Shown in pieces: positions 12,977-61,735 of a stretch of DNA of 64,000 bases. Below the pieces are notes generated by a model, which saw only the letters and a list, made by a program, of their open reading frames with translations, had not been told where the DNA came from and did not search any database. The translations under genes were made by a program, and so were the position numbers. The stretch's first letter is position 1. Each line of letters starts with the position of its first letter. Source of the DNA: Pseudobythopirellula maris (GTDB lineage: Bacteria > Planctomycetota > Planctomycetia > Pirellulales > Lacipirellulaceae); contig NZ_SJPQ01000002.1 in the NCBI RefSeq assembly GCF_007859945.1, positions 410,279 to 474,278 of the forward strand, in the 5' to 3' direction.

Positions 12977-13842
12977 GCCCCGCCCGGTGTAGACGCCAGG
13001 CTCTCGGCGGCCGCCGCCGCGCCCGAGAGCGCCAGGTGCGGCGCGTGGCGCACCACGTAGTCGGGGCCGCCGATCAGCCGGGCGACCGAAGGCGCCGCCC
13101 CGCCGGTGAGAAACACCTGCGGAGTAACGGTGAGCCGGTCGCGTTGGCGGGCGATCAGCTCTCGGATCGCCCCCACCGCGCCCCAGTAAAGCCCGGCGCG
13201 GATGGCGGAGAGTGTCTCCTTGCCCACGGCGTCGGGCGAGCCGTCGAGCTCGACCATCTCGCTCACCGGCAACGCCTCGGTCTGCTCGTTGAGCGCGCGG
13301 GCCGACATCCGCACGCCGGGCAGGATGGCGCCCCCCTCGAAGCCGCCGTCGGCCGACACCAGGTCGACCGTGATCGCGGTCCCCAGGTCGACGACGATCG
13401 CCGGCGCATCGGGGCGACGCAAACGGTTGGCGGCGACGGCCGTCAGCAACCGGTCAACGCCCACGCGCTCCGGCGCTTCGACACGCGTCACGAGCGGCAG
13501 GTTCTCGTGCGTGAGTCCGACCACGTTGATCTCGCACGAACGGCGCTGAGCCTCGTCGCGAAGCGCCGCCACAATGCGCTCGGCAGCCGGCCCGCAAACG
13601 CTCCCGATCGCCACCCGCAACGTGTCGATCGACAACCCGTCGAGCCACGCGGCCAGCGGTTCGTCCCACGACTCGTCCGAGCCGAGGCCGAGCGTCGAGT
13701 CGGGTTCGGGCAGCCGCGGGGCGGCGATCGGCAGCAGCGCCGCCGCCGCTCCCTCTGGGGCGTTGTCACAGGCGCCGGCCGCAGGGAAATACCCGAGCTT
13801 CACACGGCTGTTGCCGACATCGATTGCGATAAGTCCGCTCAT
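12973..13842 (-). CDS. coaX: Type III pantothenate kinase
   Basis: MSGLIAIDVGNSRVKLGYF N-terminus and ...GTAITVD... are typical of CoaX/Bvg accessory factor. The ORF extends upstream to 13956, but the homologous start is at 13842. Confidence 0.8.
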   Translation of the reverse strand: MSGLIAIDVGNSRVKLGYFPAAGACDNAPEGAAAALLPIAAPRLPEPDSTLGLGSDESWDEPLAAWLDGLSIDTLRVAIGSVCGPAAERIVAALRDEAQRRSCEINVVGLTHENLPLVTRVEAPERVGVDRLLTAVAANRLRRPDAPAIVVDLGTAITVDLVSADGGFEGGAILPGVRMSARALNEQTEALPVSEMVELDGSPDAVGKETLSAIRAGLYWGAVGAIRELIARQRDRLTVTPQVFLTGGAAPSVARLIGGPDYVVRHAPHLALSGAAAAAESLASTPGGA

Positions 13843-14069
13843 AGCAGCACGATAGCAGCCCCCCGGGGCGCCGTCACCGGAGCGATCCGCTTGCACCGCG
13901 CCGGAGGACGCAATCGAGAGCCGCCCGTCAGTGGCCCTCCAGTCCGTGGCTCGCATGCCGGCGCCGTGCTAAACTGAGCCGTTTGCCCCCCGGCCGCCGC
14001 TCCCCACCAAGGGGAGAGCCACCCCGGCGTGGCCCACCGCTCGAACCCACACCCCGGACGCGCAACGCC

Positions 14070-35339: not shown

Positions 35340-38300
35340 TCACGCCGACGACCCCGCCGCCAAGCACGCCTCAAGGTGCTCCGCCACAAAGCCGGCCAAA
35401 TCACCCCGCGCCAGGTCGTCTTGCTCGACGAACTTCAGCCGCACGGTGTCGCGGTCTTCGCGATCGACGTTGAGCTCTTGCTCCACGCCGAGCTCGGTGA
35501 TCTGGCCCAGTTGGAAGGCGCCCTTCGGACCGTTGAGCGCTAGCTCCACGTTCTCGGGACGCTTGGTCACCAGCGTGGCCCACGGCTCGGTGCGGCCGGG
35601 GACCATGCGGTGCACCAGCACCTTGTTGTTCCAGAGAAACTCCCCCTTGGGCGACGACTCGGCGACCATCTCGAGCAGCTCCTCCAGCAGCTCGGTCGAC
35701 CAGACGACCTTCTTGCCGGGCGCAAAGCCCTTGCGGGCCAAGTGCCACTTCTGGCCGAGCACTTTCCACGGCATCAGGTCTTCGGGGTTCTGCTCCACGC
35801 GGGTGGCGAACCGCTGGAAGCCCTCGACCGCCTTCTCGACGAATTCCCAGAAGGCGGGCTTGTCGAGCTCCCGCATCGTCAGCGCGGCGATCTGCACCTC
35901 CTGCCAGGGGCCACGGAGGTTCTTGCACTGCACGCGTGGGCCCGAGCCGTAGGCCTCGACGTCGTCCAGATCGTTCAGCGATTTCAGCGCCAGGTCCATC
36001 ACCAGTTGATCGCGTTGGAAGGTCTTTTTGGCGGTGCGGAACTTGAGCTTCACCAGCGCCCGCTCGCCGGTGAGGGCGTGGAAGAACCAGCCGTCCGATT
36101 TCTTCTGGCCGGTGATCTCGACGATCGAGCGGTTGTTCCAGTTGGTGGGGGCAAAATCACCCAACGACTGGATTTTCCGCTCCACGCGGTCGAGCAGCTT
36201 CCCTTCCCACAGGCAGGAAGACCCGTCCCGCGCAACGCGATCTTGGCAATGCCAGCGGCGGCCATCCTCTTCCCAGGGCATTTTGACCCCTTCGCCGACC
36301 TCGTCGAGGTCGAGATCGCCCTGCTGATCGGGGTCGTCGGCCGCGGGGTCGTAGAGCGGCCGCTCCTCATAGGGGCCTTCGGCGAGGATCGGGGCGAGGG
36401 CCAGGGCGGTGTGCGAGGCGGCTGCGGGATTCGGCTTGCCGTTCGCGGAGACTCCGGCGGCCGCGTCCTTCGATTTTTTCTTGCCCTTCTTGCTCGCCCT
36501 GCCGGCGCCCGCGGCCTGCATTTCCTCGACCAGCATCTCGGGCGTCCCCTCGACGACGACCTCGCCGCCGTGCTTGCCCGCCTCCGGACCGATGTCAATC
36601 ACCCAGTCGCACTGCTTGATGACGTCGAGGTTGTGCTCGATCACCACCACCGTGTTGCCCATGTCCACCAGCCGGTGCAGCACGCCGAGCAGCTTGGCCA
36701 GGTCGTCGAAGTGCAGGCCGGTGGTCGGCTCGTCCAAGAGGTAGAGCGTGCGGCCCGTGTCGGGCCGGGCGAGTTCGGAGGCGAGCTTCACGCGCTGCGC
36801 CTCGCCGCCCGAGAGTGTCGGCGCGCTCTGGCCGAGCGTGACGTAGTCGAGTCCCACGTCGCACAGCGTCTTGAGCACGCGGCGGATCTTGGGGATGTTC
36901 GAGAACAGCTTGAGGGCCTCGGCGCACGGCATCGCCAGCACGTCGGCGATCGTCTTCTCGCGGTAGCGGACCGAAAGCGTGTCGGGGTTGTAGCGCTGGC
37001 CCTGGCAGACCTCGCACTCGATCCACACGTCGGGCAGGAAGTGCATCTCGACGCAGGTCTGGCCCGCGCCCTCGCAGGCGTCGCAGCGGCCGCCGGCCAC
37101 GTTGAAGCTGAACTGGCGGGCCGTGTAGCCGCGCAGCTTCGCCTCGGGCAGTTGGGCGAACAGCTGGCGGATGAGGTCGAACGCCCCGGTGTAGGTGGCC
37201 GGGTTGCTCGAGGGCGAATTGCCCAGCGGCGTCTGGTCGACGCGGATCACCTTGTTGATGTGCGACAGGCCGCGGATGCGGTCGTGCTTGCCCGCCACGG
37301 CGCCCGCGCGGTGCAGTGTGCGGGCGAGTTGGTTGAATAAGATCTCGTTCACGAGCGATGACTTGCCCGAGCCCGACACGCCGGTGACGGCCGTCAGGAC
37401 GCCGAGCGGGAAGTCGATGTCGATGTTCTTGAGGTTGTTGTGCCGGGCGCCCTCGACGCGGAGGGTCTGCGCCAACGAACGACGGAGCACGAACGACGCG
37501 TAGTCCTCGACGGTTTCCAGATCGCTGTCGCTCGTCATGAGGAACTCGTCGTTCTCCCGGCCGCCCTCCGGCGCGGTGATCCGTCGGTTCGACGGCACCA
37601 TGATCGCCTTCTTGCCGCTCAAGTAGGGGCCGGTCACGCTCTTGCGTTTCTTCGAGACCTGCTCGGGCGTGCCGTCGGCGACGATCTGGCCGCCGTTCAC
37701 GCCGGCGCCGGGGCCGAAGTCGATCAAGCGGTCGGCGCTCGCCACGACTTCTTTGTCGTGCTCCACGACCAGCAGCGTGTTGCCCAGGTCGCGGAGCTTC
37801 TGCAGCGCCTCGATCAGCCGGGTGTTGTCTCTCGGGTGGAGGCCGATCGTCGGCTCGTCCAGCACGTAGAGCACGCCGACCAGCCCGCTGCCGACCTGGC
37901 TGGCGAGGCGGATCCGCTGGCTCTCGCCGCCCGACAGGCTCGGCGCCGTGCGGCCGAGCGTCAGGTACTCCAGTCCGACGTCCACCAAGAACGTGACGCG
38001 GCTGGAGATCTCACGCACAATCTCGCCGGCGATCTTTTTCTCGCGCTTGTCGAGCTTCCACCCCTGTACTGTCGGCAGGAGTTCGCCGAGCGGCAGGTTG
38101 ACGATCTGGTCGATCGTTTGGCTGCGGAACCGCACGGCCGAGGCGTCGTCGCGCAGCCGGCTGCTGCCGCACTCGCTGCAGTCGATTTCGTCGACGAGGT
38201 GCTCGAGGTGCGAGCGCAGCTTGGGCGAGAGACGCGAGGCCTCTTCCAGGGCGGGGTAGAGGCCCTTGAATTGGAACTTGAGCGGGGCGCTAGTTGAAGA

Positions 38301-41300
38301 ACCGGCTTTGCCTTTCTTGCTTTTACTAACGCCTAGCGCCTCGTTACTCGCAGCTTCATCGAGCGTGACCCACTCGTCGCCCGTGCCGTAGAGCAGCACC
38401 CGGCGGTGGCGGGCGCTGAGGCGGTTGTAGGGCGTGTCCGTGGGCAAGCCGGTGTGCTCGGCGAGCGCGGCGAGCATCGCTTTGGACAAATCGTTCGACA
38501 GGTGCGGCCAGAGCAACACGGCGCCCTGGGCGAGGGTGAGCTCGTCGTCACGCAGCATCGACGCCGGGTTGGCGCCGGTCTGTGTGCCGAGGCCCTCGCA
38601 CGAGGGGCACCATCCCAGTTCGCTATTGAACGAGAAGTTGTGCGGCGTGAGCGACTCGAAACTTCGGCCGCAACCGTCGCACGCCAGGTGCTGGCTGTGG
38701 CGGCGGGTGCGCCAACGCGGCTCGGCGCGCTCGTCCTCGGGGTACGAAACGAGCATCACGCCGTGACCGATCGACAGGGCCGACTCGACCGCCTCGGCGA
38801 TCCGCCCGCGGTAAGAAGGCTTGACCACGATGCGGTCGACCACCACGGCCGCCTCGTGCCGCTGGCGGCGGTCGATGCGCGGCGGGTCCTCCAGGTCGTG
38901 CGTCTGGCCGTCAACCCGCACGCGCCGGAAGCCCGCCTTGCGGAGCTGGGTCCAGAGCTCGGCGTACGAGTCGTTCGGCGCCGGCTCGACCGGGGCCATC
39001 AGCTGCAGCTTGGTCCCCTCGGGCTCGGCCATCACCTTGTCGACCACCTGGTCGGAGGTCTGCGTGCCGATGGGCGTCTCGCACTCGGGGCAGTACGGCG
39101 CGCCGAGGCGGGCGAAGAGCACCCGGAAGTAGTCGTAGATCTCGGTGACCGTGCCCACGGTGGAGCGTGGCGAGTGGCCCATGCTGCGCTGCTCGATCGC
39201 CACGGCGGGCGACAGGCCCTCGATGTGGTCGAGCAGCGGCTTCTGCATCTGGCCGACGAACTGCCGGGCGTAGGAGCTGAGGCTCTCGACGTAGCGGCGT
39301 TGCCCCTCGGCGTAGATCGTGTCCATCGCGAGCGACGACTTGCCCGAGCCGCTCGGGCCGCAGAGCACGGTCATCTCGTCACGGGGGAACTTGGCGTCGA
39401 CGCCGCGCAGGTTGTGCTGCCGCGCGCCGCGCACCTCGATGTGGGTCGCCTGCGGCGCCGCCCGCTTGGGCGCCTTGGCCGTCGGCTTGTCGGCCATCGT
39501 GCCGTCGAGCACCGGGCCGAGCGCCTCGCCCGTGTAGGAACGCAACGCGGGATTGTCACGGGTGTGCTCGACGAGCGCCTCGGGCGTGCCCGAGAAGACC
39601 ACCTGCCCGCCGCCGGCGCCCCCCTCGGGGCCGATGTCGATGAGCCAGTCGGCGGTCTTGATCACGTCGAGGTTGTGCTCCACCACCAGCACCGTGTTGC
39701 CGGCGTCGGCGAAGTTGTGCAGCACGTTGAGCAGCATCTCGATGTCGGCGAAGTGCAGCCCGGTCGTCGGCTCGTCCAAGAGGTAGAGCGTCTTGCCCGT
39801 CGACTTCTTGACCAGCTCTTTGGCGAGCTTGATCCGCTGCGCCTCGCCGCCCGAGAGCGTGGGCGAAGGCTGGCCGATCTTCAGGTAGTCGAGGCCCACC
39901 GCGTGCAGCGTCGAGAGCTTGTGGTTGATCGACGGGATCGCCTCGAAGTGCTCGAGCGCCTGGCAGATGTCCATCTCCAGGGCGTCGGCGATGCTCACGC
40001 CCTTGTACTCGACTTGCAGGGTCTCGCGGTTGAACCGCTTGCCCGCGCACACCTGGCAGGTGACCCACACGTCGGCCAAGAAGTCCATCTCGAGCTTGTT
40101 GGCGCCGTTGCCCTCGCACGCCTCACAGCGTCCGCCGGCCACGTTGAAGCTGAACCGCCCCGGCTTGTAGCCGCGCCGCTTCGACTCGGGCAGCTGGGCG
40201 TAGAGGTTGCGTATGTCGTCGAACACCTTGATGTAGGTGCCCGGGTTGGAGCGCGGCGTGCGGCCGATCGGCGACTGGTCGATCGCGATGATCTTGTCGA
40301 GCTGGTCGACCCCCTCGATGCGGTCGTGGTCGCCCGGCTTGCCCTTGCCCTTCATCAGGTCGCGGAGCAACGCCTCGCGCAAGATGCTGTTCACGAGCGA
40401 GCTCTTGCCCGAGCCCGAAACGCCGGTCACACAGACGAAGGCGCCGAGCGGGATCTCGACCGTGACGTCTTTGAGGTTGTTCTGGCGGGCGCCCACGACG
40501 GTGAGAGTCGGGAAGCCCGCACTCCCCTCCCCTGCCGGGGAAGGGGGATCTTGCAGCCGCCGCGTCTTCGGCACCTCGATCTTCCGCTTGCCGCCGAGGT
40601 ACGCGCCGGTGACGCTCTTGCGTTTCTTCGCGATCTCGTCCGCCGTGCCGACCGCCACGACCTCGCCCCCCTTCACGCCGGGGCCGGGGCCGAAGTCGAT
40701 GAGCAGGTCGGCCGCGCGCATCGTGTCTTCGTCGTGCTCGACCACGACCACGGTGTTGCCCAGGTCGCGCAGGCGGGTGAGCGTTTCGATCAGCCGGTCG
40801 TTGTCGCGCGGGTGGAGGCCGATCGACGGCTCGTCCAAGATGTAGAGCACGCCGACCAGTCCGCAGCCGACCTGCCCCGCCAAGCGTATGCGCTGCGTCT
40901 CGCCGCCCGAGAGCGTCGGCGCCGTGCGGTTGAGCGACAGGTACTCCAGGCCCACGCCGGCGAGGAACCCGAGCCGCCCGCGCACCTCCTTGATCGCCTC
41001 TTCGGCGATCGTGCGTTGCGGCTTGCTGAGCACGAGGTCGGCGAAATAGTCTCCCGCCTCGGAGATCGACAGCTCGCACAGCTCGGGCAGGCTCTTGGTC
41101 GGGGCGCCGGCGAACGCCGGGTTGGCGGTCGTGATCTTCACGCCCCGCGCACGATCGTTGATCCGCTGCCCCTCGCAGTCGGGGCAGTCGATCACCCGCA
41201 TGAACTTCTCGAGCTGGCGGATCTGCATCTGGCTCTGCGTAGAGCGGTACTTCTCCAGCAACTCGGGGATCACGCCCTCGAACTCACCGCCGTACTTTTG

Positions 41301-42518
41301 CGACGACTTGCCGGCGCGCCACGTGTACGTGATGTGCTCCTCGCCCGTGCCCCAGAGCCAAATGTTCTGGTGCTCTTCGGAGAGGTCTTGCCACGGCGTC
41401 TCGAGCAATGTCCCCTCTTCGAGCCCGAGCTTGCGCTCCATCGTGTCGGCCACGCCCTGGAAGATGTGCCGCTTCCAGCGGCCGAGGTCTTTCCATTTGT
41501 CGACCAGCGCAAAGCAGCCCTGGGCGAACGACTTCGTGGGATGCTCGACCAGCCGCTCGGGATCGAACGAGTAGAACTCGCCGATGCCGTCGCAGGTGAG
41601 GCACATGCCGCGTGGGCTGTTGAAGCTGAAGAGCTGCGGCGAGGGGGGCTCGAAGCTCAGCCCGCAGGCGTTGCAGGCGAAGTCGGCCGACAGCGCGATG
41701 TCGCCAGCCTGCAGGCCGGTGCGGCGCTTCTTGGCCGGTTTCTTGGCCGACGGCTTCGACTCCGCCGGCGCCTCGGCCGTGTCGTCCGCCTCGTCGTCCT
41801 CCTCGGGGGCGACGATCAGGGCGCCATCGCCAAGCTTCAGCGCGGCGTCGACCGCCTCGCCCAATCGGCCGCGGATCGAGGGGCCCGCCGTCAGTCGGTC
41901 GACCACCGCCTCGATGTCGTGCCGCACCTGCCGGTCGAGCGTCTGCGACTCGTCGAGCCGCACCATCCGCCCGTCGACACGGGCGCGGACGTAGCCCTGC
42001 TTCTGCAGGTCCTCCAAGAGATCGCGGTGCTCGCCCTTCTGCTGACGCACCACGGGCGCCAGCACGGCGAACTTGCTCCCCTTGGGCAGCGAGAGGATCT
42101 GGCCGATGATCTGCTCGCGCGATTGGGCCGTGATCCGCTCGCCGCAACTCGGGCAGTGGCCCTCGCCGATGCGGGCGAAGATCACGCGCAGGAAGTCGTA
42201 GATCTCGGTGATCGTGCCCACCGTGGACCGCGGGTTGTTGCCCGAGGACTTCTGCGAGATCGAGATCGACGGGCTCAGGCCCGAGATCAAATCGACGTCC
42301 GGCTTGGGCATCTGGCCCAGGAATTGGCGCGCAAAGGTCGACAGGCTCTCGACATAACGCCGTTGACCCTCGGCAAACAGCGTGTCAAACGCCAGCGAGC
42401 TCTTGCCCGAGCCCGACACGCCGGTCAGACAGATCAGCTGGTTGCGCGGCAGCGTAACATCGACATCCCGCAAGTTGTGCTCACGGGCGCCGCGGATGAG
42501 AATATCGGAAGCGGGCAT
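35340..42518 (-). CDS. Giant tandem double-UvrA protein: two complete UvrA-like units (each with two ABC ATPase domains, Zn fingers and a UvrB-binding-like insert) plus a ~310-aa C-terminal domain of unknown function
   Basis: Single uninterrupted 2392-aa ORF. Four Walker A ([10 protein letters not shown] x3, [10 protein letters not shown]) and four LSGGE signatures. Unit 1 is aa 1-~1000 and unit 2 is aa ~1025-2000. The tail is aa ~2080-2392. Confidence 0.85.
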   Translation of the reverse strand: MPASDILIRGAREHNLRDVDVTLPRNQLICLTGVSGSGKSSLAFDTLFAEGQRRYVESLSTFARQFLGQMPKPDVDLISGLSPSISISQKSSGNNPRSTVGTITEIYDFLRVIFARIGEGHCPSCGERITAQSREQIIGQILSLPKGSKFAVLAPVVRQQKGEHRDLLEDLQKQGYVRARVDGRMVRLDESQTLDRQVRHDIEAVVDRLTAGPSIRGRLGEAVDAALKLGDGALIVAPEEDDEADDTAEAPAESKPSAKKPAKKRRTGLQAGDIALSADFACNACGLSFEPPSPQLFSFNSPRGMCLTCDGIGEFYSFDPERLVEHPTKSFAQGCFALVDKWKDLGRWKRHIFQGVADTMERKLGLEEGTLLETPWQDLSEEHQNIWLWGTGEEHITYTWRAGKSSQKYGGEFEGVIPELLEKYRSTQSQMQIRQLEKFMRVIDCPDCEGQRINDRARGVKITTANPAFAGAPTKSLPELCELSISEAGDYFADLVLSKPQRTIAEEAIKEVRGRLGFLAGVGLEYLSLNRTAPTLSGGETQRIRLAGQVGCGLVGVLYILDEPSIGLHPRDNDRLIETLTRLRDLGNTVVVVEHDEDTMRAADLLIDFGPGPGVKGGEVVAVGTADEIAKKRKSVTGAYLGGKRKIEVPKTRRLQDPPSPAGEGSAGFPTLTVVGARQNNLKDVTVEIPLGAFVCVTGVSGSGKSSLVNSILREALLRDLMKGKGKPGDHDRIEGVDQLDKIIAIDQSPIGRTPRSNPGTYIKVFDDIRNLYAQLPESKRRGYKPGRFSFNVAGGRCEACEGNGANKLEMDFLADVWVTCQVCAGKRFNRETLQVEYKGVSIADALEMDICQALEHFEAIPSINHKLSTLHAVGLDYLKIGQPSPTLSGGEAQRIKLAKELVKKSTGKTLYLLDEPTTGLHFADIEMLLNVLHNFADAGNTVLVVEHNLDVIKTADWLIDIGPEGGAGGGQVVFSGTPEALVEHTRDNPALRSYTGEALGPVLDGTMADKPTAKAPKRAAPQATHIEVRGARQHNLRGVDAKFPRDEMTVLCGPSGSGKSSLAMDTIYAEGQRRYVESLSSYARQFVGQMQKPLLDHIEGLSPAVAIEQRSMGHSPRSTVGTVTEIYDYFRVLFARLGAPYCPECETPIGTQTSDQVVDKVMAEPEGTKLQLMAPVEPAPNDSYAELWTQLRKAGFRRVRVDGQTHDLEDPPRIDRRQRHEAAVVVDRIVVKPSYRGRIAEAVESALSIGHGVMLVSYPEDERAEPRWRTRRHSQHLACDGCGRSFESLTPHNFSFNSELGWCPSCEGLGTQTGANPASMLRDDELTLAQGAVLLWPHLSNDLSKAMLAALAEHTGLPTDTPYNRLSARHRRVLLYGTGDEWVTLDEAASNEALGVSKSKKGKAGSSTSAPLKFQFKGLYPALEEASRLSPKLRSHLEHLVDEIDCSECGSSRLRDDASAVRFRSQTIDQIVNLPLGELLPTVQGWKLDKREKKIAGEIVREISSRVTFLVDVGLEYLTLGRTAPSLSGGESQRIRLASQVGSGLVGVLYVLDEPTIGLHPRDNTRLIEALQKLRDLGNTLLVVEHDKEVVASADRLIDFGPGAGVNGGQIVADGTPEQVSKKRKSVTGPYLSGKKAIMVPSNRRITAPEGGRENDEFLMTSDSDLETVEDYASFVLRRSLAQTLRVEGARHNNLKNIDIDFPLGVLTAVTGVSGSGKSSLVNEILFNQLARTLHRAGAVAGKHDRIRGLSHINKVIRVDQTPLGNSPSSNPATYTGAFDLIRQLFAQLPEAKLRGYTARQFSFNVAGGRCDACEGAGQTCVEMHFLPDVWIECEVCQGQRYNPDTLSVRYREKTIADVLAMPCAEALKLFSNIPKIRRVLKTLCDVGLDYVTLGQSAPTLSGGEAQRVKLASELARPDTGRTLYLLDEPTTGLHFDDLAKLLGVLHRLVDMGNTVVVIEHNLDVIKQCDWVIDIGPEAGKHGGEVVVEGTPEMLVEEMQAAGAGRASKKGKKKSKDAAAGVSANGKPNPAAASHTALALAPILAEGPYEERPLYDPAADDPDQQGDLDLDEVGEGVKMPWEEDGRRWHCQDRVARDGSSCLWEGKLLDRVERKIQSLGDFAPTNWNNRSIVEITGQKKSDGWFFHALTGERALVKLKFRTAKKTFQRDQLVMDLALKSLNDLDDVEAYGSGPRVQCKNLRGPWQEVQIAALTMRELDKPAFWEFVEKAVEGFQRFATRVEQNPEDLMPWKVLGQKWHLARKGFAPGKKVVWSTELLEELLEMVAESSPKGEFLWNNKVLVHRMVPGRTEPWATLVTKRPENVELALNGPKGAFQLGQITELGVEQELNVDREDRDTVRLKFVEQDDLARGDLAGFVAEHLEACLAAGSSA

Positions 42519-42674
42519 ATCGCGGCGTCGGCTTGGGGCCGACTAGCGGCTCGCCGAGCGGTGGGGGGTCGTGGGGAGGGGCGTTCCGTCGTCCCACGCG
42601 GCCACGGTGGTCGGCTCGCGCGGATCGAGCATTCTACGGCAGCCCCGGCAAACCGAGAAGGTTGGAGAACGAAC

Positions 42675-53064: not shown

Positions 53065-53365
53065 CAACCAGCCAAGAACCGGCGGGCGTAAGCCCCTGGT
53101 GGGGGGTCTCCAAGAGGAGTCTCGTTGCGGTTCGTGCCGGACGCCTCCGGGGGCTTACGCCCGCCGGCTCGGCGCACTCGCTGGGTTGCAACTAGGTTTT
53201 CTTCCCGATCGCGGCTGCGGCCTTCCCGCTTATCAAAGGTTGCCAACATCGGGTTAGGGAATATAGACTGCTGAGGATACACCCAGTGTTTTGACCCGAT
53301 TCACGTCCGCCGGCCTCCCAGGCCCGAGCGAAGATCCCGCCTGTTTCTTTCTGGAGGTACGAGCC

Positions 53366-54727
53366 GTGGCGCCTGTTGCTGCCGAGAAGCTGTCTTACAA
53401 AGTCCTTGATTGCACGCCCGAAGAATTCGAGCGTCTGGCCGCGTTTGGCCGTCAGGAGATCAACCTGGCCGAGTCGGAAATGCCCGGCCTGATGTCCCTG
53501 CGCGAGAAGTACGGCAAGGACAAGCCGCTCCAGGGCGCGCGGATCGCCGGCTGCTTGCACATGACGATCCAGACGGCCGTCCTGATCGAGACGCTCATCG
53601 AGCTCGGCGCCGAGGTCACCTGGAGCAGCTGCAACATCTACAGCACCCAGGACCACGCCGCCTGTGCGATCGCCAAGGCGGGCATCCCGGTCTTCGCTTG
53701 GAAGGGCGAGACCAACGAAGAGTTCGACTGGTGCATCGAGCAGACGCTCACCGCCTTCCCTTCGGGCAAGCCGCTCAACCTGATCCTGGACGACGGCGGC
53801 GACCTGACCGCCATGGTCCACGACAAGTTCCCCGAGCTGCTGGCCGACATCAAAGGCCTGTCGGAAGAGACCACCGCCGGCATCCACCGCCTGGAGGTGC
53901 TCCTGAAGGAGGGCCGCCTGGCCGTCCCGGCGATCAACGTCAACGACTCGGCCACGAAGAGCAAGTTCGACAACTTGTACGGCTGCCGCGAGAGCCTGGC
54001 CGACGGCGTGAAGCGCGCGACCGACGTCATGCTCGCCGGCAAGGTCGCCGTGGTCTGTGGCTACGGCGACGTCGGCAAGGGCTGCGCCCACAGCCTCCGC
54101 TCGTACGGCTGCCGCGTGATCGTCACGGAGATCGACCCCATCAACGCCCTGCAGGCCGCGATGGAAGGCTACGAGGTCACGACCATGGAGGAAGCCTGCA
54201 AGGAAGGCAACCTGTTCGTCACCACGACCGGCAACAAGGACATCATCCTCGGCGAGCACATGGTCGAGATGCCGGAGGACGCCATCCTCTGCAACATCGG
54301 CCACTTCGACACGGAGATCGACATCGCTTGGCTCGAGGCGCAGGTCGCCGCCGGCAACGCCACGAGCGACGTGATCAAGACCGAGAAGGAAGGCGCCGTC
54401 GACCGTTACACGTTCAAGAAGAGCGGCCGCTCGATTCTCACGCTCGCCAAGGGCCGGCTGGTGAACCTCGGTTGCGCCACGGGCCACCCGAGCTTCGTCA
54501 TGAGCAACTCGTTCACCAACCAAACGCTCGCCCAGCTCGAGCTTTGGAACAACGAGGGCCAGTACGAGAACCAGGTCTACCGCCTGCCGAAGCACCTCGA
54601 CGAGGAGGTCGCCCGCCTGCACCTCGAGAAGATCGGCGTGAAGCTCACGAAGCTCACCCAAGAGCAGGCCGACTACATCGGCGTGCCGGTCGAGGGGCCG
54701 TACAAGTCGGACCACTACCGGTACTGA
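53366..54727 (+). CDS. ahcY: Adenosylhomocysteinase
   Basis: YKVLD...[22 protein letters not shown]-binding GYGDVGKG and C-terminal ...DHYRY. GTG start with a GGAGG RBS 7 nt upstream, in frame with ORF 53291..54727. Confidence 0.88.
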
Positions 54728-54959
54728 AATACCCGTGAGGGAGTGGCCAGAGGCTTGAAGCCAGAGGTCAGAAACACGAAAGCCGCCGGCGGGAGCCGGC
54801 GGCTTTTTTCGTGCGCCCGTCGATCGGCCGCAAGGGCGGACGGTCGACGGATCGCGGGGAGTGGCGGTAAACTCGTTGCTCCTCCGGGCGCTAACGCTTA
54901 CGGCTCGCCCCGGGAGGCTACGTCATTCCGCCATCCGCAATCCGAATTCCGCACTTAAA

Positions 54960-56321
54960 ATGCCCGAGATCGAAGCCCTCCGCGCCATCCGTTACGACCT
55001 GGGCCACGTCGGCTCGCTGAGCGACGTGGTCGCCCCGCCCTACGACGTGATCGACGCCGAGCTGCTCGAGCAGCTCTGCGAGCAGAGCCCCTACAACTCG
55101 GTGCGGCTGATCCTCGGCAAGGACGAGCCGGGCGATTCGGACACGGCGAACCGCTACACCCGTTCGGCCAAGTTCCTCAAGGAGTGGATGCGCGACGGCG
55201 TGCTGTTCACCGAGGCCAACCCGGCGGTCTACGCCTACCACCAGACCTACACCGAGGCGGGCGTCGAGTACACGCGGCGTGGGTTCATGTGCCGTGTTCG
55301 GCTCGAGCGGTTCGGCGAGGGCAAGATCCACCCGCACGAGGAGACGCACGGCGGCGCCAAGGCCGACCGCCTCAAGCTCTGGAAGGCGACCAAGACGAAC
55401 ATGAGCCAGGTGTTCGGCCTGTTTCCCGACGACGAGAACGAGGCCCAGAACCTGCTGGAAGAAGCGATCATGGGCGTCGCGCCGCTCGAGGCGGCCGACC
55501 ACCTCGGCGTGGTCAACCGGCTCTGGCCGGTGAACGACGTGGCCGTGATCTCCAAGATGCAGGCCGTGATGGGCCCCAAGCCGGTCTACATTGCCGACGG
55601 CCACCACCGCTACGAGACCGCCTGCAACTACCGCGACGAGCTCGCCGCGGAGATGAAGGCCAAGGGCGAGGAGATGCCCGACAACCACCCGGCCAACTAC
55701 GTGCTGATGATGTGCGTCTCGATGAGCGACCCCGGCATGCTCGTGCTGCCCACGCACCGGCTGTTCCGCGGCATGCCCGAGATGACGGCCGAGGAGCTCA
55801 CCGCCAAGCTGGGCGACAAGTTCACGACCGAGCCGGCGGGCGAGGGCCCGAGCCACGCCCCCGAGGCGTGGGAGTCGATCGAGACCGAGGACAACCAGGG
55901 GACGCTGGCCCTGTACACCGCGGGGGACAAGAAGTGGACCCTCTGCCGCGTGACCGACGCGGGCCGGGACCGCATGGCCGAGATCGCCCCCGAGCAGTCT
56001 AAGGACTGGCAGGGCCTGGGCGTGAGCCTGCTGCACAAGCTCGTGATGGAGGACCTGCTGCAGGCCCCCGAGACGGCGGCCCCCAAGTACGTGCGGGCGA
56101 TCGACGAGGTGGTCGAGGGCCTCACCAACGGCGAGGCCGCCGGCCGCGACCTGACGGGCCAGATCTCCGAGGGGGGCGTGTTCAACCTGGCGGCCGTGGT
56201 GATGCCGGCCACGCTGGAGCACATCCGCCAGATCTCGAACCACGGCGAGCGGATGCCGGCCAAGAGCACCTACTTCTATCCGAAGGTGCTCAGCGGTCTG
56301 CTGTTCAACCCGCTCGAATAA
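54960..56321 (+). CDS. DUF1015 family protein
   Basis: Start MPEIEALRAIRYD. VYIADGHHR motif characteristic of DUF1015. Confidence 0.6.
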   Translation: MPEIEALRAIRYDLGHVGSLSDVVAPPYDVIDAELLEQLCEQSPYNSVRLILGKDEPGDSDTANRYTRSAKFLKEWMRDGVLFTEANPAVYAYHQTYTEAGVEYTRRGFMCRVRLERFGEGKIHPHEETHGGAKADRLKLWKATKTNMSQVFGLFPDDENEAQNLLEEAIMGVAPLEAADHLGVVNRLWPVNDVAVISKMQAVMGPKPVYIADGHHRYETACNYRDELAAEMKAKGEEMPDNHPANYVLMMCVSMSDPGMLVLPTHRLFRGMPEMTAEELTAKLGDKFTTEPAGEGPSHAPEAWESIETEDNQGTLALYTAGDKKWTLCRVTDAGRDRMAEIAPEQSKDWQGLGVSLLHKLVMEDLLQAPETAAPKYVRAIDEVVEGLTNGEAAGRDLTGQISEGGVFNLAAVVMPATLEHIRQISNHGERMPAKSTYFYPKVLSGLLFNPLE

Positions 56322-56355
56322 AACGGACCGCGTCGATCCCCCCGAAGCAACCGGC

Positions 56356-56440
56356 GAGCCGGCCCCGTGAGGGGCCGGTGGTGATCGGCTACGAGTGGTT
56401 TCAGCGGCGCACAACCACCGGCCCCTCACGGGGCCGGCTC
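56356..56440. terminator. 27-bp perfect inverted repeat (gagccggccccgtgaggggccggtggt ... accaccggcccctcacggggccggctc) with a 31-nt loop
   Basis: The arms are exact reverse complements. Located 35 bp after the DUF1015 stop. Confidence 0.6.
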
Positions 56441-56451
56441 GCCCTTTCTCT

Positions 56452-56546
56452 GTTTCACGTGAAACGGTTGCGGGGAGGCCACGGCTTGGGTGTTTCACGT
56501 GAAACACGTCGCCGCTGCCCGCGGCGCCGGTTGTTTCACGTGGAAC
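56452..56546. promoter_or_regulatory. Array of three copies of the 14-bp palindrome GTTTCACGTG(A/G)AAC, spaced 40-41 bp apart
   Basis: Copies at 56452-56465, 56492-56505 and 56533-56546 (third copy G at position 11). Operator-like. Confidence 0.55.
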
Positions 56547-57411
56547 GTGCGTCGGCCGGTTCGGCGATCGGCTGGCTCGTGGGCGTGGCCGCACGCCAAT
56601 CGGCGCCTTGTGGCAAGGCGGCCCCGCGCCGTTGCTGCCGGTCGAGCCACCACAGCGTGAGCCAAACGGCGGGGCGCCGGGTGAGCATCTGCAGCAGGAA
56701 CCAAACGGGGATGAGCACCAGCGTGCCTATCGACAAAGTCCCCACGGCCCGCAACAGCGAGAGCAGCACGCAGAGCGGGACCATCAGCGCCATCAGTCGC
56801 CACAGCGAGAACCGCATCGGGGGCGGCGCCGCGGCGGGCGATTCTCGCTGCTGGTAGAAGGTGGGGGCGTGGGCGAGCACCGCGCCGATTTGCCCCGCCA
56901 TGATGTTGCCGATAAACATCAGGCACGTCAGCAAGACCTGTCCCGCAATCGCCATCGGCCCCCCCGGCCAATCCGTCATGCCGTGGGGGAGCATCCACGC
57001 CAACGCGACCAAACCGCCGGTGAACAGGGCGAGACGATGCTCGGCGGGCCGCCATTCCATCAGCCGCAGCGTGAGTTTCACCGGCCAGTAGAGCAGCAGC
57101 ACTGTAAGGTAGGTGAGCAACCAACTGAGCAAGACTCCGAAGACCGCCCCGATTAACAGGCTGCCGATCATGTACCCGACCATCATGGGCCCGCCACCTC
57201 CGCCCAACATCATGCTTGGAGTCATCCAGAAGACCATTACCGCACCGACCAGCAGGATGGTCAGCAAAGCGTAGTAGACGTGGACCTTGGCCACCTTGCG
57301 AGCGAGCATCTGCCAGTCGGGCCAATGGGGGACAACCGGCTCGCCACCGGGATGGGTGGCGTTCTCACTAGCTGCAGCGAGCTCGGCGGCGATCGGGTTG
57401 GGGATGGACAT
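56536..57411 (-). CDS. Polytopic membrane protein, paralog 1 of a tandem triplet (unknown family)
   Basis: 291 aa, ~7 TM helices. Conserved C-terminal block RFSLWRLMALMVPLCVLLSLL...LIPVWFLLQMLTRRPAVWL shared with paralogs 2 and 3. Confidence 0.6.
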   Translation of the reverse strand: MSIPNPIAAELAAASENATHPGGEPVVPHWPDWQMLARKVAKVHVYYALLTILLVGAVMVFWMTPSMMLGGGGGPMMVGYMIGSLLIGAVFGVLLSWLLTYLTVLLLYWPVKLTLRLMEWRPAEHRLALFTGGLVALAWMLPHGMTDWPGGPMAIAGQVLLTCLMFIGNIMAGQIGAVLAHAPTFYQQRESPAAAPPPMRFSLWRLMALMVPLCVLLSLLRAVGTLSIGTLVLIPVWFLLQMLTRRPAVWLTLWWLDRQQRRGAALPQGADWRAATPTSQPIAEPADARST

Positions 57412-57519
57412 GCAGGCATGATAATCCCCGCCGAGTGGCGACGCTCTCTTTTCTTTTCACCGCTCGCGTCTCCATGGGGTGGATTCCCCCTACGCCCGCG
57501 GCGCCTGTACCGGCTGCGT

Positions 57520-57574
57520 GTTTCACGTGAAACGGGTCGAGGCTGCCCGCCGCACGGGTTGTTTCACGTGGAAC
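57520..57574. promoter_or_regulatory. Two more GTTTCACGTG(A/G)AAC palindromes 41 bp apart, with the same conserved spacer (gctgcccgc) as in the 56452 array
   Basis: Copies at 57520-57533 and 57561-57574. Upstream of paralog 1 and 3' of paralog 2. Confidence 0.55.
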
Positions 57575-57576
57575 AT

Positions 57577-58284
57577 TCACACGGAGCAACGTAGCCGCTC
57601 TTGCCTGCGCCGTCGGCTACGGAGCTTGGCGTCGAGGTGGCGGTTGGCGAGCCGCATGACCGGCCGCCAAGTGAGCTCCTGCCAAACGAGCCAGGCGAGG
57701 GTGATGACCAGAAAATCGAACGTCAGTCCATCCAGCCAGCTCAGCAGCGAGAGCAGCATGCAGAGCGGGACCATGGCCGCCAGCAGCTGCCAGAGGGGGA
57801 ATCGCCACGGCTCGGCGGTTTGACTCCCCTGCTTCCGGCGACGTCGCAGCCGCCAAATTGCCGCCATCGACCCGGCGTATTGTCCGAACAAGGTCGCTCC
57901 CGCAGGTCCGACGCCAAAAAACAGAAGCTTGCTGAATAGGTCTGCGTTCCGCTGCACCAGAGCGACAGAGAACCAAAGCGTGGTCAGGTAAGCCGCCAGG
58001 GCGCCGACGAAAGCGGCCAGCCGATCGCGTGGCGGCGACCACCGCAGCCACCACAGCACGCCGCGCGTCGAAAAAATTGCGATGCCCGTCGTGATCAGGC
58101 AGAAGACGAATGTCACGAAGAACAGCATGGCTGAATAGAAGACCAGCCCAATAGCTGCGCCCGCGAGATCGCCCCAGCTGAGTCCGTCTCGAAAGAGTCT
58201 GCCGCTGGCGAGCATAAACGCCCCCATCACGCCGACAACCGCGTGGGGATAAAAACCACCAGCAATCGCCACGTAGACCCACAC
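57577..58284 (-). CDS. Polytopic membrane protein, paralog 2 (start apparently GTG; ancestral ATG lost)
   Basis: Strongly similar to paralog 3 (...TRGVLWWLRWSPPRDRLAAFVGAL..., ...PWRFPLWQLLAAMVPLCMLLSLLSW...). The in-frame upstream region still encodes ...NPIPPERAAWYSPTSAP, homologous to the paralog 3 N-terminus, but contains no ATG. Confidence 0.5.
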   Translation of the reverse strand: MWVYVAIAGGFYPHAVVGVMGAFMLASGRLFRDGLSWGDLAGAAIGLVFYSAMLFFVTFVFCLITTGIAIFSTRGVLWWLRWSPPRDRLAAFVGALAAYLTTLWFSVALVQRNADLFSKLLFFGVGPAGATLFGQYAGSMAAIWRLRRRRKQGSQTAEPWRFPLWQLLAAMVPLCMLLSLLSWLDGLTFDFLVITLAWLVWQELTWRPVMRLANRHLDAKLRSRRRRQERLRCSV

Positions 58285-58481
58285 CAGCGGCCAAAAGCTC
58301 TCCGACGGGCTCCGCTGGGCCGCTACTGGCGCCGAAGTCGGCGAGTACCAGGCGGCCCGCTCGGGCGGGATGGGATTGCAGACTTCGATGGATCCACTCG
58401 GAAGGAGGCGTGGCTTGCTGGCGGCTGGCTCTTCGACGCTAGCAGTCTAACCGGCGTTCCGGACCGCAGCCAAGAATCACC

Positions 58482-59291
58482 TCATGGAAACAACACGGGC
58501 CGCACTCTTCCGCGTCGTCGGCGGCGGAGCTTGGTGTCGAGATAGCGGTTGGCGAGCCACGCCACAGGACGCCAGGAGAGCTGTTGCCAGACGAGCCAGG
58601 CGAGGGTGATGACGAAGAACTCCGGCGTCAGCCATCCCACCCAGCTCAGGAAGGACAGCAGCATGCAGAGTGGGACCACGGTCGCCATGAGCCGCCAGAG
58701 GGGGAAACGCCACGGCTCGGCAAATTGACTCCCGTTCACCCGGCGGCGGCGCAGCTGCCATGTAGCCGCCATCGACCCGAAGAACTGTCCGAACAAGGTC
58801 GCTCCCGCGGGCCCAATCAAGAAGCCGATGAGCTTGATGAGCAGGTCTCCATCCCGCTGGTTCACAGCGACGGCGACCCAAAGGGTGGCTAGGTGAGCCA
58901 CAAGCGCGCCGACGAAAGCGGCCAGCCGATCGCGTGGCGGCGACCACCGCAACCACCACAGAACGCCGCGCGTCAATAAAATAACGATGCCCGCTATGAT
59001 AAAGACAAAAACGAATACCGCGAAGAACAGTACTGCTGAGTAGATGACCAGCGGAATAAACCCATCTGCTAGGTCGCTCCAGCTCATTTCGCCCAAGATG
59101 AGACCGCCGCTAACGAATAAAAACGTCGCCACGCCGACAACCACGAGGGGATATAACCCACCGGCGAACGACAAGTAGAGCCACACCAGCGACCAATAGC
59201 TTTGAGTCTGATTTCTAGGGCCCGCGACGGGGGCCGATGCCGGCGAGTAATCGGCAGCCCGCTCGGACGGAGTGGGGTTGCTTGCGTCCAT
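58482..59291 (-). CDS. Polytopic membrane protein, paralog 3
   Basis: 269 aa. ATG start MDASNPTPSERAADYSP. Confidence 0.6.
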   Translation of the reverse strand: MDASNPTPSERAADYSPASAPVAGPRNQTQSYWSLVWLYLSFAGGLYPLVVVGVATFLFVSGGLILGEMSWSDLADGFIPLVIYSAVLFFAVFVFVFIIAGIVILLTRGVLWWLRWSPPRDRLAAFVGALVAHLATLWVAVAVNQRDGDLLIKLIGFLIGPAGATLFGQFFGSMAATWQLRRRRVNGSQFAEPWRFPLWRLMATVVPLCMLLSFLSWVGWLTPEFFVITLAWLVWQQLSWRPVAWLANRYLDTKLRRRRRGRVRPVLFP

Positions 59292-59400
59292 TGAGACACA
59301 CGGGGCGTGATGCGGTTTGTCCTTAGGCAGGCATTAGGACGCTAGCAGTCTAACCGGCGTTCCGCTCAATGGGGTCGTCTCCTAGAATCCGCGGCCCTCA

Positions 59401-59422
59401 CCCCGACCAAGCCTAGTCGGGG
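59401..59422. repeat. Palindrome C variant (ccccgaccaagcctagtcgggg) + gccgcgccgcc
   Basis: Matches 46049-46081 except for a changed centre. Confidence 0.75.
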
Positions 59423-59486
59423 GCCGCGCCGCCACACACGCCCCCTTCATCCCACCTCATCCCGCGAACAAAAAGAGCACCGCCCT

Positions 59487-60233
59487 ATGGGTAAGGTCTA
59501 CTGCGTCGCGAACCAAAAAGGCGGTGTCGGCAAAACGACCACCGCCGTGAACGTCGCCGCCGGCTTGGCGGCCGCGGGGCTGCGCACGCTGCTGGTGGAC
59601 CTCGACCCGCAGTGCAACGCCACCGGCGCCGTCGCCCGCGAGCCTTCGCCGCGGCACCCGCTCGTGGAGCGCACGCCGATCCGCGAGGCGGTCACGCCGA
59701 CCGACTTCGAGGGCCTCACTCTGCTGCCCGGCAGCCGCAGCTTTCACGACGTCGATCACCTGGCGCAGGTCGGCGGGGCCGAGTCGGAGCTCGTCGCCCA
59801 GCACCTCTCCGCTAGCTTGGGCGCGTACGACGCGGTGCTGGTCGACTGCCCGCCGTCGCTGGGGGCGCTCACCCAAACGGCGCTAGCGACGGCCGACGAG
59901 GTGCTGATGCCCCTGGAGTGCGAGTACTTCGCCATGGAGGGACTCACACAAATGATTGAGCTGATCAAACGGGTGATGACGAGGTCAAACAGCCGATTAC
60001 AGTTTGGCGGGATCGTGCTCACCAAGCACGACCCGTCGCTCGAGCTCACCAGGGAGGTGGAGCGCGAGGTGCGTGAGTTCTTTGGCGACGTGGTGCTCCG
60101 CACTGTCGTGCCGAGGGACGTCGCGCTGGCCGAGGCCCCAAGCCACGGCCAACCAGTGATGGAGTATGCGCCGCGGTCACGGGGGACGCGGGCTTATATC
60201 GAGTTGTGTCAGGAGGTTCAGGGACGTGAGTAA
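59487..60233 (+). CDS. parA: Chromosome partitioning ATPase ParA/Soj
   Basis: MGKVYCVANQKGGVGKTTTAVN deviant Walker A. Confidence 0.88.
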   Translation: MGKVYCVANQKGGVGKTTTAVNVAAGLAAAGLRTLLVDLDPQCNATGAVAREPSPRHPLVERTPIREAVTPTDFEGLTLLPGSRSFHDVDHLAQVGGAESELVAQHLSASLGAYDAVLVDCPPSLGALTQTALATADEVLMPLECEYFAMEGLTQMIELIKRVMTRSNSRLQFGGIVLTKHDPSLELTREVEREVREFFGDVVLRTVVPRDVALAEAPSHGQPVMEYAPRSRGTRAYIELCQEVQGRE

Positions 60234-61341
60234 TCAACGCCGCTTGGGTCGTGGTCTGGAAGCCCTGTTGGGCCGATCGCTCGAAGAACAAAACACGCCG
60301 GCGGCGCCCGCCGGTCAATTCAGCGCGGTGCCCGCCGACGCGCCGGCCGACAGCAACGCTGGCGCCCCGGCGGACCTGGGCCCGCACCTCACGGCCGACG
60401 ACCAGGGCCAGCGCTGGCTCGACATCGGCGTGATCGAGCCGAACCCGTTCCAGCCTCGGAAGAAATTCGACGAGGTCGAGATCGCCGACCTGGCGGACAG
60501 CGTCCGCGAGCACGGCGTGCTGCAGCCGCTCGTGGTGAGGCGAGTCGGAGACCGCTTCGAGCTCGTGGCCGGCGAGCGCCGCCTGCGCGCCGCCCAAGCC
60601 GCCGGCTGGGAACGCGCCCCGGTCCAGCTGCGCGAACTCAGCGACCAGCAGACCGCCGAGCTGGCGATCGTTGAGAACGTGCAGCGCAAGGACCTCAACG
60701 CGATCGAGAAGGCCGCGAGTTTCCAGCGCTATATAAATGACTACGCCTGCACCCAGGACGAGCTGGCCAAGCGGATCCATGTCGACCGCTCGACGGTGGC
60801 CAACCTGATCCGGCTGCTCGACCTGCCCGAGGGCGTCAAGCAGCGGGTCGTCGATGGCGAGCTGACGCAGGGCCACGCCCGGGCGCTCTTGCCCGTGGGC
60901 GAGGCGGACGCGCAAGAAGGCCTGGCCAAACGGATTATCCAAGAGGGCTGGTCGGTGCGGCGCACCGAGCAAGAGGCGCAGAACAGCGTGCAAGACCTCG
61001 AGTCGATCACCCACGGCGGCGAAGACGCGAGCCTGCGGGTGATCGGCGAGGACGGCGTGAGCCGCCAGCCGGGCGCCGAGCCCAAGCCGGGCAAGAGCGA
61101 GCAGCTCGCCGCGCTGGAGCGCGAACTGCAGACCGCCCTCGGCACGAAGGTCGCCCTCAACCAGAACGCCAAGGGGAAGGGGAAGATCACGATCCACTTC
61201 GCTGGCGGCGAGGAGTTCGAGCGGCTCCACGCGTTGCTCGTGGCCTCGCAGCCGATGGCGCCCCCCGCGGACGGGACCGACCAGCAGCCGTTCGTCGAGA
61301 ACCAGTACGACCAGCCGGCCTACAACACGGGTGTGGGATGA
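60226..61341 (+). CDS. parB: Chromosome partitioning protein ParB/Spo0J
   Basis: GTG start overlapping the parA stop (cGTGAGTAA). RRLGRGLEALL, ParB box GERRLRAA, HTH region. Confidence 0.8.
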   Translation: MSNQRRLGRGLEALLGRSLEEQNTPAAPAGQFSAVPADAPADSNAGAPADLGPHLTADDQGQRWLDIGVIEPNPFQPRKKFDEVEIADLADSVREHGVLQPLVVRRVGDRFELVAGERRLRAAQAAGWERAPVQLRELSDQQTAELAIVENVQRKDLNAIEKAASFQRYINDYACTQDELAKRIHVDRSTVANLIRLLDLPEGVKQRVVDGELTQGHARALLPVGEADAQEGLAKRIIQEGWSVRRTEQEAQNSVQDLESITHGGEDASLRVIGEDGVSRQPGAEPKPGKSEQLAALERELQTALGTKVALNQNAKGKGKITIHFAGGEEFERLHALLVASQPMAPPADGTDQQPFVENQYDQPAYNTGVG

Positions 61342-61504: not shown

Positions 61505-61578
61505 CGGGGCGTGGCGCAGCCTGGTAGCGCGACTGCTTTGGGAGCAGTAGGTCGCACGTTCGAATCGTGTCGCCCCGA
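61505..61578 (+). tRNA. tRNA-Pro (anticodon TGG)
   Basis: Cloverleaf read by eye. Acceptor CGGGGCG/CGCCCCG. D-stem GCGC/GCGC with AGCCTGGTA loop. Anticodon stem ACTGC/GCAGT with loop TTTGGGA (34-36 = TGG; G37). T-arm GCACG-TTCGAAT-CGTGT. Discriminator A. CCA not encoded. Confidence 0.8.
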
Positions 61579-61696
61579 CTTAGTTTCAGGTGAAAAGGGC
61601 CTTCGGCGAATAGAGCAGGAGATAAGAGAAAGGAGAGCAGGAGAGCTCCGGTTTGGAGCACGGATGTGCTTGTGCAAGCCGTTCGATCCTCCTGCG

Positions 61697-61711: not shown

Positions 61712-61735
61712 TCTCCTTTCACGTGAATCACCGAC

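Follow-up and report, generated by a model that had tools for sequence, protein, structure and literature searches.

Within a stretch of 64,000 nucleotides of the Pseudobythopirellula maris genome (contig NZ_SJPQ01000002.1, positions 410,279 to 474,278; hereafter the window, whose own coordinates are used throughout), five copies of a short palindrome stand in two tight clusters beside a group of genes for membrane proteins, and the question raised by the locus is which protein these sites serve. In the original prediction the palindromes were read as operators for a dimeric regulator, and no cognate regulator was thought to be obvious in the window. We find instead that they are almost certainly chromosomal parS sites, that is, the centromere-like ParB loading sites of a P. 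maris ParABS system. The observations on which this assignment draws are the match of the sites to the parS consensus, the presence of intact ParA and ParB, a site cluster that relatives also keep upstream of parAB, and the tendency of paired sites in general to accompany parAB; binding, spreading and a role in segregation would then be expected from what is known of the ParABS family. Elements of this kind are already known, and the locus is a textbook parS cluster, not a new regulatory system.

The palindromes and the parS consensus

The motif GTTTCACGTG(A/G)AAC is found at positions 56452, 56492, 56533, 57520 and 57561, and the coordinates and sequences first reported for the five copies hold in every case. 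Three of the sites (56452, 56492 and 57520) are the perfect 14-bp palindrome GTTTCACGTGAAAC and the other two (56533 and 57561) are the variant GTTTCACGTGGAAC. Start-to-start spacing is 40 and 41 bp in cluster A (sites 1–3) and 41 bp in cluster B (sites 4–5), so that the proposed phasing of 40–41 bp is borne out, and the spacer said to be shared by the two clusters is recovered as a pair of 27-nt segments with 74% identity. The gene context described for the clusters likewise agrees with the map of open reading frames (ORFs). Cluster A lies next to the DUF1015 gene, between the convergent 3' ends of that gene (stop at 56321) and of membrane paralog 1 (ORF end 56536), and site 3 overlaps the stop codon of the latter. 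Cluster B (57520–57574) lies between membrane paralogs 1 and 2, 110–160 bp upstream of the start codon of paralog 1 (57411).

In a motif search of the window allowing up to two mismatches, seven matches were obtained where 0.15 were expected, the expectation being the mean over 100 dinucleotide-preserving shuffles, none of which reached seven. All of the strong sites are confined to 1.1 kb next to parAB, and there are none elsewhere in the window. When extended to 16 bp, all five fit the chromosomal parS consensus TGTTNCACGTGAAACA, given for Bacillus subtilis and Corynebacterium glutamicum (PMC7022226), with zero or one mismatch on at least one strand (Table 1). The exact 14-mer GTTTCACGTGAAAC is given for Mycobacterium smegmatis parS in the same source (PMC7022226), and the minus strand of site 5, TGTTCCACGTGAAACA, is identical to the sequence quoted as the optimal B. 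subtilis parS (PMC8299390).

A related sequence is found on the far side of parB. The half-site that had been placed at 61717–61727, upstream of the gene for a four-helix-bundle protein (the 23S rRNA intervening-sequence protein, IVP), does exist and extends to CTTTCACGTGAATC at 61716–61729. Each of its half-sites carries one mismatch, which in one half falls on the G linked in the literature to Arg173 of ParB (see below). The site falls in the 394-bp gap after parB, just downstream of tRNA-Pro, and the IVP gene starts 7 bp farther on. It is unlikely to have arisen by chance because its 10-bp core, TTCACGTGAA, occurs four times in the window where 0.04 occurrences are expected. It is not conserved in the related loci described below, and its sequence would suit a possible low-affinity or decaying parS. 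After the tRNA-Pro gene, a purine-rich stretch precedes this weak parS-like site. Another match, GTTTCAGGTGAAAA at 61583, was discarded as a site; its CACGTG core is broken and it lies in the tRNA-Pro trailer.

The parAB operon and the proposed ParB loading zone

The claim that no cognate protein is at hand proved wrong, because a canonical parAB operon stands 1.9–2.6 kb from the sites (Table 1), with the ParB gene at about 2.6 kb; cluster A is 2.9 kb from parA. The parA gene is syntenic with parB in all relatives compared, and the GTG start of parB at 60226 overlaps parA by 8 nt, as it does in the relatives. The predicted ParB is 100% identical to a 371-residue protein entered at NCBI as 'putative chromosome-partitioning protein ParB [Pseudobythopirellula maris]', and for this reason the GTG at 60226 was taken as the start codon; the longer ORF from 60166 (391 residues) is probably over-extended.

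The NCBIfam model TIGR00180 (parB_part) is passed by this ParB with 175 bits against a cutoff of 58.45, and its best matches in the PDB are ParB/Spo0J proteins, including the parS co-crystals 6t1f and 4umk from Caulobacter and Helicobacter. Aligned to the solved ParB structures, the protein retains an intact CTP-binding box, GERRLRA (GERRxRA; GxxRxxA type). Its N-terminus carries RRLGRGLEALLG, an LGRGLEALL motif that we take, from established knowledge of the family, to be the ParA-stimulating peptide. A search of genome contigs with this ParB as query returned as its sole match one distant Oscillospiraceae locus, where no parS was found.

The choice between parS and the sites bound by Noc, a ParB paralog, is set by four interface residues, which are R173, T179, A184 and G201 in Caulobacter ParB and Q, K, K and R in Noc (PMC7383237). 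In the alignment to 6t1f, the residues of P. maris ParB at these four positions are R, L, D and G. Judged from this alignment the residues are of the parS type, lacking the Noc lysines at 179 and 184, and the protein is a ParB of the canonical chromosomal type. The Noc model of NCBIfam did give the numerically highest score (225 bits), but its cutoff is 315; the residues are R-L-D-G and not Q-K-K-R, the DNA sites are parS and not Noc-binding sites (NBS), and an assignment to the Noc/NBS system was rejected.

How the locus would work can be proposed from the family. ParB dimers nucleate at parS, and CTP closes the N-terminal gate to give a clamp that slides off the site (PMC7053999, PMC8367383). 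In P. maris, a ParB dimer would use its helix-turn-helix domain to recognise each of the 16-bp inverted repeats, binding to parS would lead to CTP-dependent closure of the N-terminal gate, and the closed clamp would slide onto the flanking DNA and leave the site free for the next dimer. A higher number of parS sites gives a higher rate of ParB loading (PMC8299390), and since five sites are packed into 1.1 kb the clusters would act as a strong, high-rate loading zone from which a dense ParB–DNA partition complex would form over the parAB neighbourhood. Tight clustering of several parS beside the native cluster has been described in Caulobacter (PMC5815017). The membrane genes, given their position, would lie inside the expected zone of ParB spreading. 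The N-terminal LGRGLEALL peptide of ParB would stimulate the ATPase of nucleoid-bound ParA, which would in turn move the partition complex, presumably into the bud, and the complex would probably also load SMC.

Several points temper the assignment of the locus as a centromere. All functional steps proposed for the P. maris sites rest on homology. Chromosomal parS sites are typically origin-proximal; neither dnaA nor dnaN was found in the 64-kb window, and the GC skew across it is flat, with no clear switch. In three complete Lacipirellulaceae genomes, the parS–parAB locus is found 0.85–1.1 Mb (13–17% of the chromosome) from coordinate 1, at 5.76 of 6.62 Mb in CP036291 (locus L002), 5.50 of 6.61 Mb in CP036278 (L003) and 0.90 of 5.87 Mb in CP036349 (L004). 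If those records start at dnaA/oriC, the absolute distance between centromere and origin is rather large. Genes of the mnmE/TrmE type often lie near origins, and an mnmE/TrmE-like gene at 11831–13453 is the sole gene of an origin-associated kind in the window.

Conservation, spacing and duplication of the paired sites

Ten related parAB loci were compared, from Pirellulimonas nuda, Aeoliella mucimassa, three Botrimarina species and five metagenome-derived contigs. The gene order common to them is PRAI, AdoHcyase, (DinB), (DUF1015), zero to at least four unannotated minus-strand genes, parA and parB, with the genes in brackets not always present. Each of the ten has a main cluster of two to four parS-like 14-mers no more than about 8 kb upstream of parA, and the gene for DUF1015 or for AdoHcyase is usually its neighbour. 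One further, stray site is present in four of them (at 2335 in L003, 4506 in L129, 1717 in L002 and 13400 in L130), standing 1.5–4 kb from the main cluster, and in L003 a split DDE transposase lies between the site cluster and parA. The stray sites and the split transposase indicate that the centromere neighbourhood is structurally fluid in this Lacipirellulaceae set, with a 41-bp doublet of sites as its fixed part.

The minus-strand genes of the relatives are homologous to the P. maris membrane paralogs by tblastn (at 5219–9106 in L002 and 6127–9072 in L127, for example). Their copy number between DUF1015 and parA varies from zero (L128 and L130) through one (L004, L005 and L006) and three (P. 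maris and B. colliarenosi) to at least four (P. nuda and A. mucimassa). Loci L128 and L130 keep the sites without any membrane gene, the doublet lying in the upstream region of parA, and in L127 the cluster is on the other side of two of its three membrane-paralog copies. For these reasons the sites are seen to go with parAB and not with the membrane genes, which are ruled out as an obligatory partner.

The same comparison bears on whether the palindromes could be cooperative operators of an unnamed dimeric transcription factor, with a regulon made up of the membrane-protein and four-helix-bundle (23S rRNA IVP) genes. We consider such a factor highly improbable. The sites are indeed palindromic, paired and a few helical turns apart, and a related core does stand just upstream of the IVP gene, but the sequence is the parS consensus and its cognate ParB is present, and in the ten relatives, as in diverse metagenome contigs, such sites accompany parAB irrespective of the remaining neighbours. 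Of the two parts of the supposed regulon, the membrane genes are missing from two loci that keep the sites and the IVP-proximal site is not conserved; cluster A, placed between convergent 3' ends, does not occupy a promoter position. What stands of the operator proposal is that these are specific sites for a dimeric helix-turn-helix protein and that their spacing is probably meaningful, whereas their function is almost certainly that of a parS centromere and not of a regulon operator.

Within the parS clusters, the doublet nearest parA measures exactly 41 bp from start to start in 10 of 11 clusters and 40 bp in P. nuda, and its parA-proximal site ends in GGAAC in all ten of the 41-bp clusters. 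The spacer is 27 nt long in 10 of the 11 clusters, across at least five genera, and the 27-nt spacers of different genomes are 40% identical, compared with 28% expected from composition. Of the 15 intervals in the first six loci to be tabulated, 9 were 40–41 bp, against 7% in the metagenome background. Because the sites are orthologous, the constancy of the 41 bp represents a conserved length and not independent convergence; it suggests a constraint on helical phase, as 41 bp corresponds to about 3.9 turns. A doublet that stays fixed despite a diverged spacer is a small comparative detail and may be new.

In P. maris the doublet is present twice, as two copies of a 60-nt module that comprises two sites and the 27-nt spacer between them. 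Copy A is orthologous to the 41-bp doublet of the ten relatives. A second doublet was found in none of those ten, and the extra copy B has so far been seen only in P. maris. The identity between the two copies, 87%, greatly exceeds that of the paralogous genes flanking them, which encode proteins with 31% identity. The sequences are consistent with copy B being a recent local copy or a product of gene conversion, and the second doublet may have been gained by copying of the two-site module, again a small detail and possibly new. New parS sites in Caulobacter are tolerated only near the native cluster (PMC5815017), and the position of the P. maris copy, near the native doublet, fits that finding.

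A repeated module and the perfect 30-nt inverted repeat directly beside site 1 might also call to mind a dispersed element of the repetitive extragenic palindromic (REP) or miniature inverted-repeat transposable element (MITE) kind without a specific protein partner, which the original prediction had named as the outcome that would overturn it. We give this hardly any credence: only five strong sites are present in 64 kb, all of them within 1.1 kb, and in each of the ten relatives the main cluster keeps to within about 8 kb upstream of parA. Between genera the sites and their spacing are kept and the sequence of the spacer is not, the reverse of the pattern expected from a mobile repeat, and no terminal repeats or target-site duplications were found around the 60-nt module.

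Metagenomes were scanned without bias for two parS half-cores 10–40 nt apart, and at least 120 unrelated contigs matched, of which mostly short stretches were examined. Among the matches listed, ParA and/or ParB is encoded on the examined stretch in 56 of 120, the doublet is usually just upstream of parA, contig GC content ranges from 36 to 71%, and ParB identity to the P. maris protein is 35–58% where matched. Pairs of parS sites in close proximity are therefore common among bacteria. The spacing of adjacent 14-mers in the at least 120 contigs is broad, mostly 34–53 bp with a mode at 37–38 bp and rarely below about 34 bp, and shows secondary humps near 26–27 and 46–48 bp; a spacing of 40–41 bp is nothing special among bacteria generally. 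There is a tentative periodicity of 10–12 bp (p of about 0.003–0.008 against a smoothed null, uncorrected for the seven periods tried and for kinship among contigs). The pattern hints at a minimum footprint combined with helical phasing of ParB loading sites.

We therefore put forward, as a speculation that is doubtful at present, that the exact 41-bp spacing is under selection because it sets two ParB dimers on nearly the same face of the helix, that the spacings in metagenomes are lineage-specific settings, and that the P. maris centromere grew by copying of the 60-nt module. If this were true, placement on the same face could aid cooperative nucleation or CTP-gated clamp loading, and the doublet, not the single parS, would be the functional loading unit. 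The broad metagenome spacing and the possible 10–12 bp periodicity would then be settings of one constraint, and P. maris would exemplify one route of centromere growth in bacteria, the copying of a two-site module within its own neighbourhood.

The sites, or ParB spread from them, might in addition to the centromere role regulate their neighbours, repressing paralog 1 or autoregulating parAB. Cluster B is close enough upstream of paralog 1 that it could overlap its promoter, and the doublet is directly upstream of parA in L128, L130 and most of the metagenome contigs listed; transcriptional effects of chromosomal ParB at parS-like motifs have been reported in P. aeruginosa, for example (PMC5961200). 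However, it is cluster A that is conserved, which sits between convergent 3' ends and well away from parA, and a scan of 56200–59600, blind to planctomycete promoter types, found no sigma-70-like promoter. On balance such side regulation is unlikely.

Neighbouring features and known systems

The features of the locus are compiled in Table 1. Membrane paralogs 2 and 3 stem from a 905-bp tandem duplication (76–79% DNA identity), and there are no sites in the duplicated unit. The perfect 30-nt inverted repeat (56353–56382 and 56414–56443, with a 31-nt loop) separates parS site 1 from the stop codon of DUF1015. Each of its arms holds a GC hairpin, CCGGCCCC-GTGA-GGGGCCGG; a T-rich run comes after the second of these hairpins, which scored as terminator-like. 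The inverted repeat at 56353–56443 probably serves the two convergent genes as a bidirectional terminator. In an Rfam scan of 54000–62500 matches to miRNA precursors fell far below the gathering thresholds and were rejected as artefacts of this long hairpin; beyond these, only tRNA-Pro was found. Elsewhere in the window, a 2401-codon ORF (35340–42542, minus strand) contains UvrA_inter and UvrA_DNA-bind twice each together with several ABC ATPase modules and looks, from its domains, like a double-length UvrA-like protein. A second UvrA homolog, of normal length, is encoded at 13845–17021 (plus strand).

Table 1. Features in and around the proposed parS–parAB locus of P. maris, in window coordinates; the sites are predicted parS.
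Feature	Coordinates	Strand	Description
AdoHcy hydrolase gene	53291–54727		Pfam
DUF1015 gene	54861–56321		Pfam
parS site 1, TGTTTCACGTGAAACG	56451–56466	.	perfect 14-bp palindromic core; 1 mismatch to 16-bp consensus TGTTNCACGTGAAACA
Two-site module, copy A	56487–56546	+	60 nt; sites 2 and 3 plus 27-nt spacer; repeat finder, reference copy
parS site 2, TGTTTCACGTGAAACA	56491–56506	.	perfect 16-bp palindrome; 0 mismatches on both strands; 40 bp from site 1
parS site 3, CGTTCCACGTGAAACA	56532–56547	minus	1 mismatch (minus); 41 bp from site 2
Membrane paralog 1	56536–57411	minus	predicted multi-pass membrane protein; no Pfam or NCBIfam match
Two-site module, copy B	57515–57574	+	60 nt; sites 4 and 5; 87% identity to copy A, 1028 bp away
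parS site 4, TGTTTCACGTGAAACG	57519–57534	.	1 mismatch; first site of second module copy
parS site 5, TGTTCCACGTGAAACA	57560–57575	minus	0 mismatches (minus); 41 bp from site 4
Membrane paralog 2	57577–58284	minus	predicted multi-pass membrane protein; no Pfam or NCBIfam match
Membrane paralog 3	58482–59291	minus	predicted multi-pass membrane protein; no Pfam or NCBIfam match
parA	59487–60233	+	Walker-type partition ATPase; Pfam AAA_31 (3.9e-46), CbiA, MipZ, ParA
parB	60226–61341	+	Pfam ParB_N, HTH_ParB, ParB_C; predicted cognate binder, CTP-dependent clamp type
tRNA-Pro (anticodon TGG)	61505–61579	+	Rfam scan; immediately downstream of parB
Candidate sixth site, CCTTTCACGTGAATCA	61715–61730	.	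weak or degenerate parS-like; 10-bp core intact, 2 mismatches in 14-mer

For annotation, the outcome is that an apparent orphan regulatory motif is resolved as a chromosome centromere. The sites would mark the ParB loading zone of a budding, FtsZ-less planctomycete, a member of a group in which chromosome segregation has hardly been studied, and they provide a handle for imaging of ParB fusions or chromatin immunoprecipitation in that group; the species description paper of P. maris makes no mention of ParB or parS. The fixed 41-bp doublet and the duplicated module bear on a question raised in PMC5815017, by what means parS clusters grow and for what reason they remain near one another. Nothing here is surprising to a specialist.

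Among known systems, Noc and its NBS in Firmicutes share with P. maris ParB a homologous fold and a 16-bp palindromic site, but the P. maris protein scores below the Noc cutoff, its specificity residues differ and its DNA sites are parS, so it does not belong to the Noc family. The parS arrays of Mycobacterium smegmatis, Streptomyces coelicolor and Myxococcus xanthus (GTTTCACGTGAAAC or TGTTCCACGTGGAACG; from 3 to at least 22 sites) also resemble the P. maris sites: the 14-mer of P. maris matches the M. smegmatis consensus exactly, and the GGAAC half-site of the P. maris variant is similar to the consensus of M. xanthus (PMC7022226). These three organisms are GC-rich like P. maris and have multiple sites in the origin domain (PMC7022226), whereas P. 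maris belongs to another phylum and has five or six sites in its 64-kb window. The ParABS system of Caulobacter crescentus, in which 5–7 sites stand beside parAB over about 5 kb, agrees with that of P. maris in the 16-bp consensus and in a three-domain ParB that binds CTP and has R and G as specificity residues; its ParA is adjacent (PMC5815017, PMC7383237), and several sites are likewise packed beside the par operon. In contrast to Caulobacter, the host of the predicted P. maris system is a budding, FtsZ-less planctomycete (PMC7717034), and in the Lacipirellulaceae the parA-proximal pair of sites is held at exactly 41 bp.

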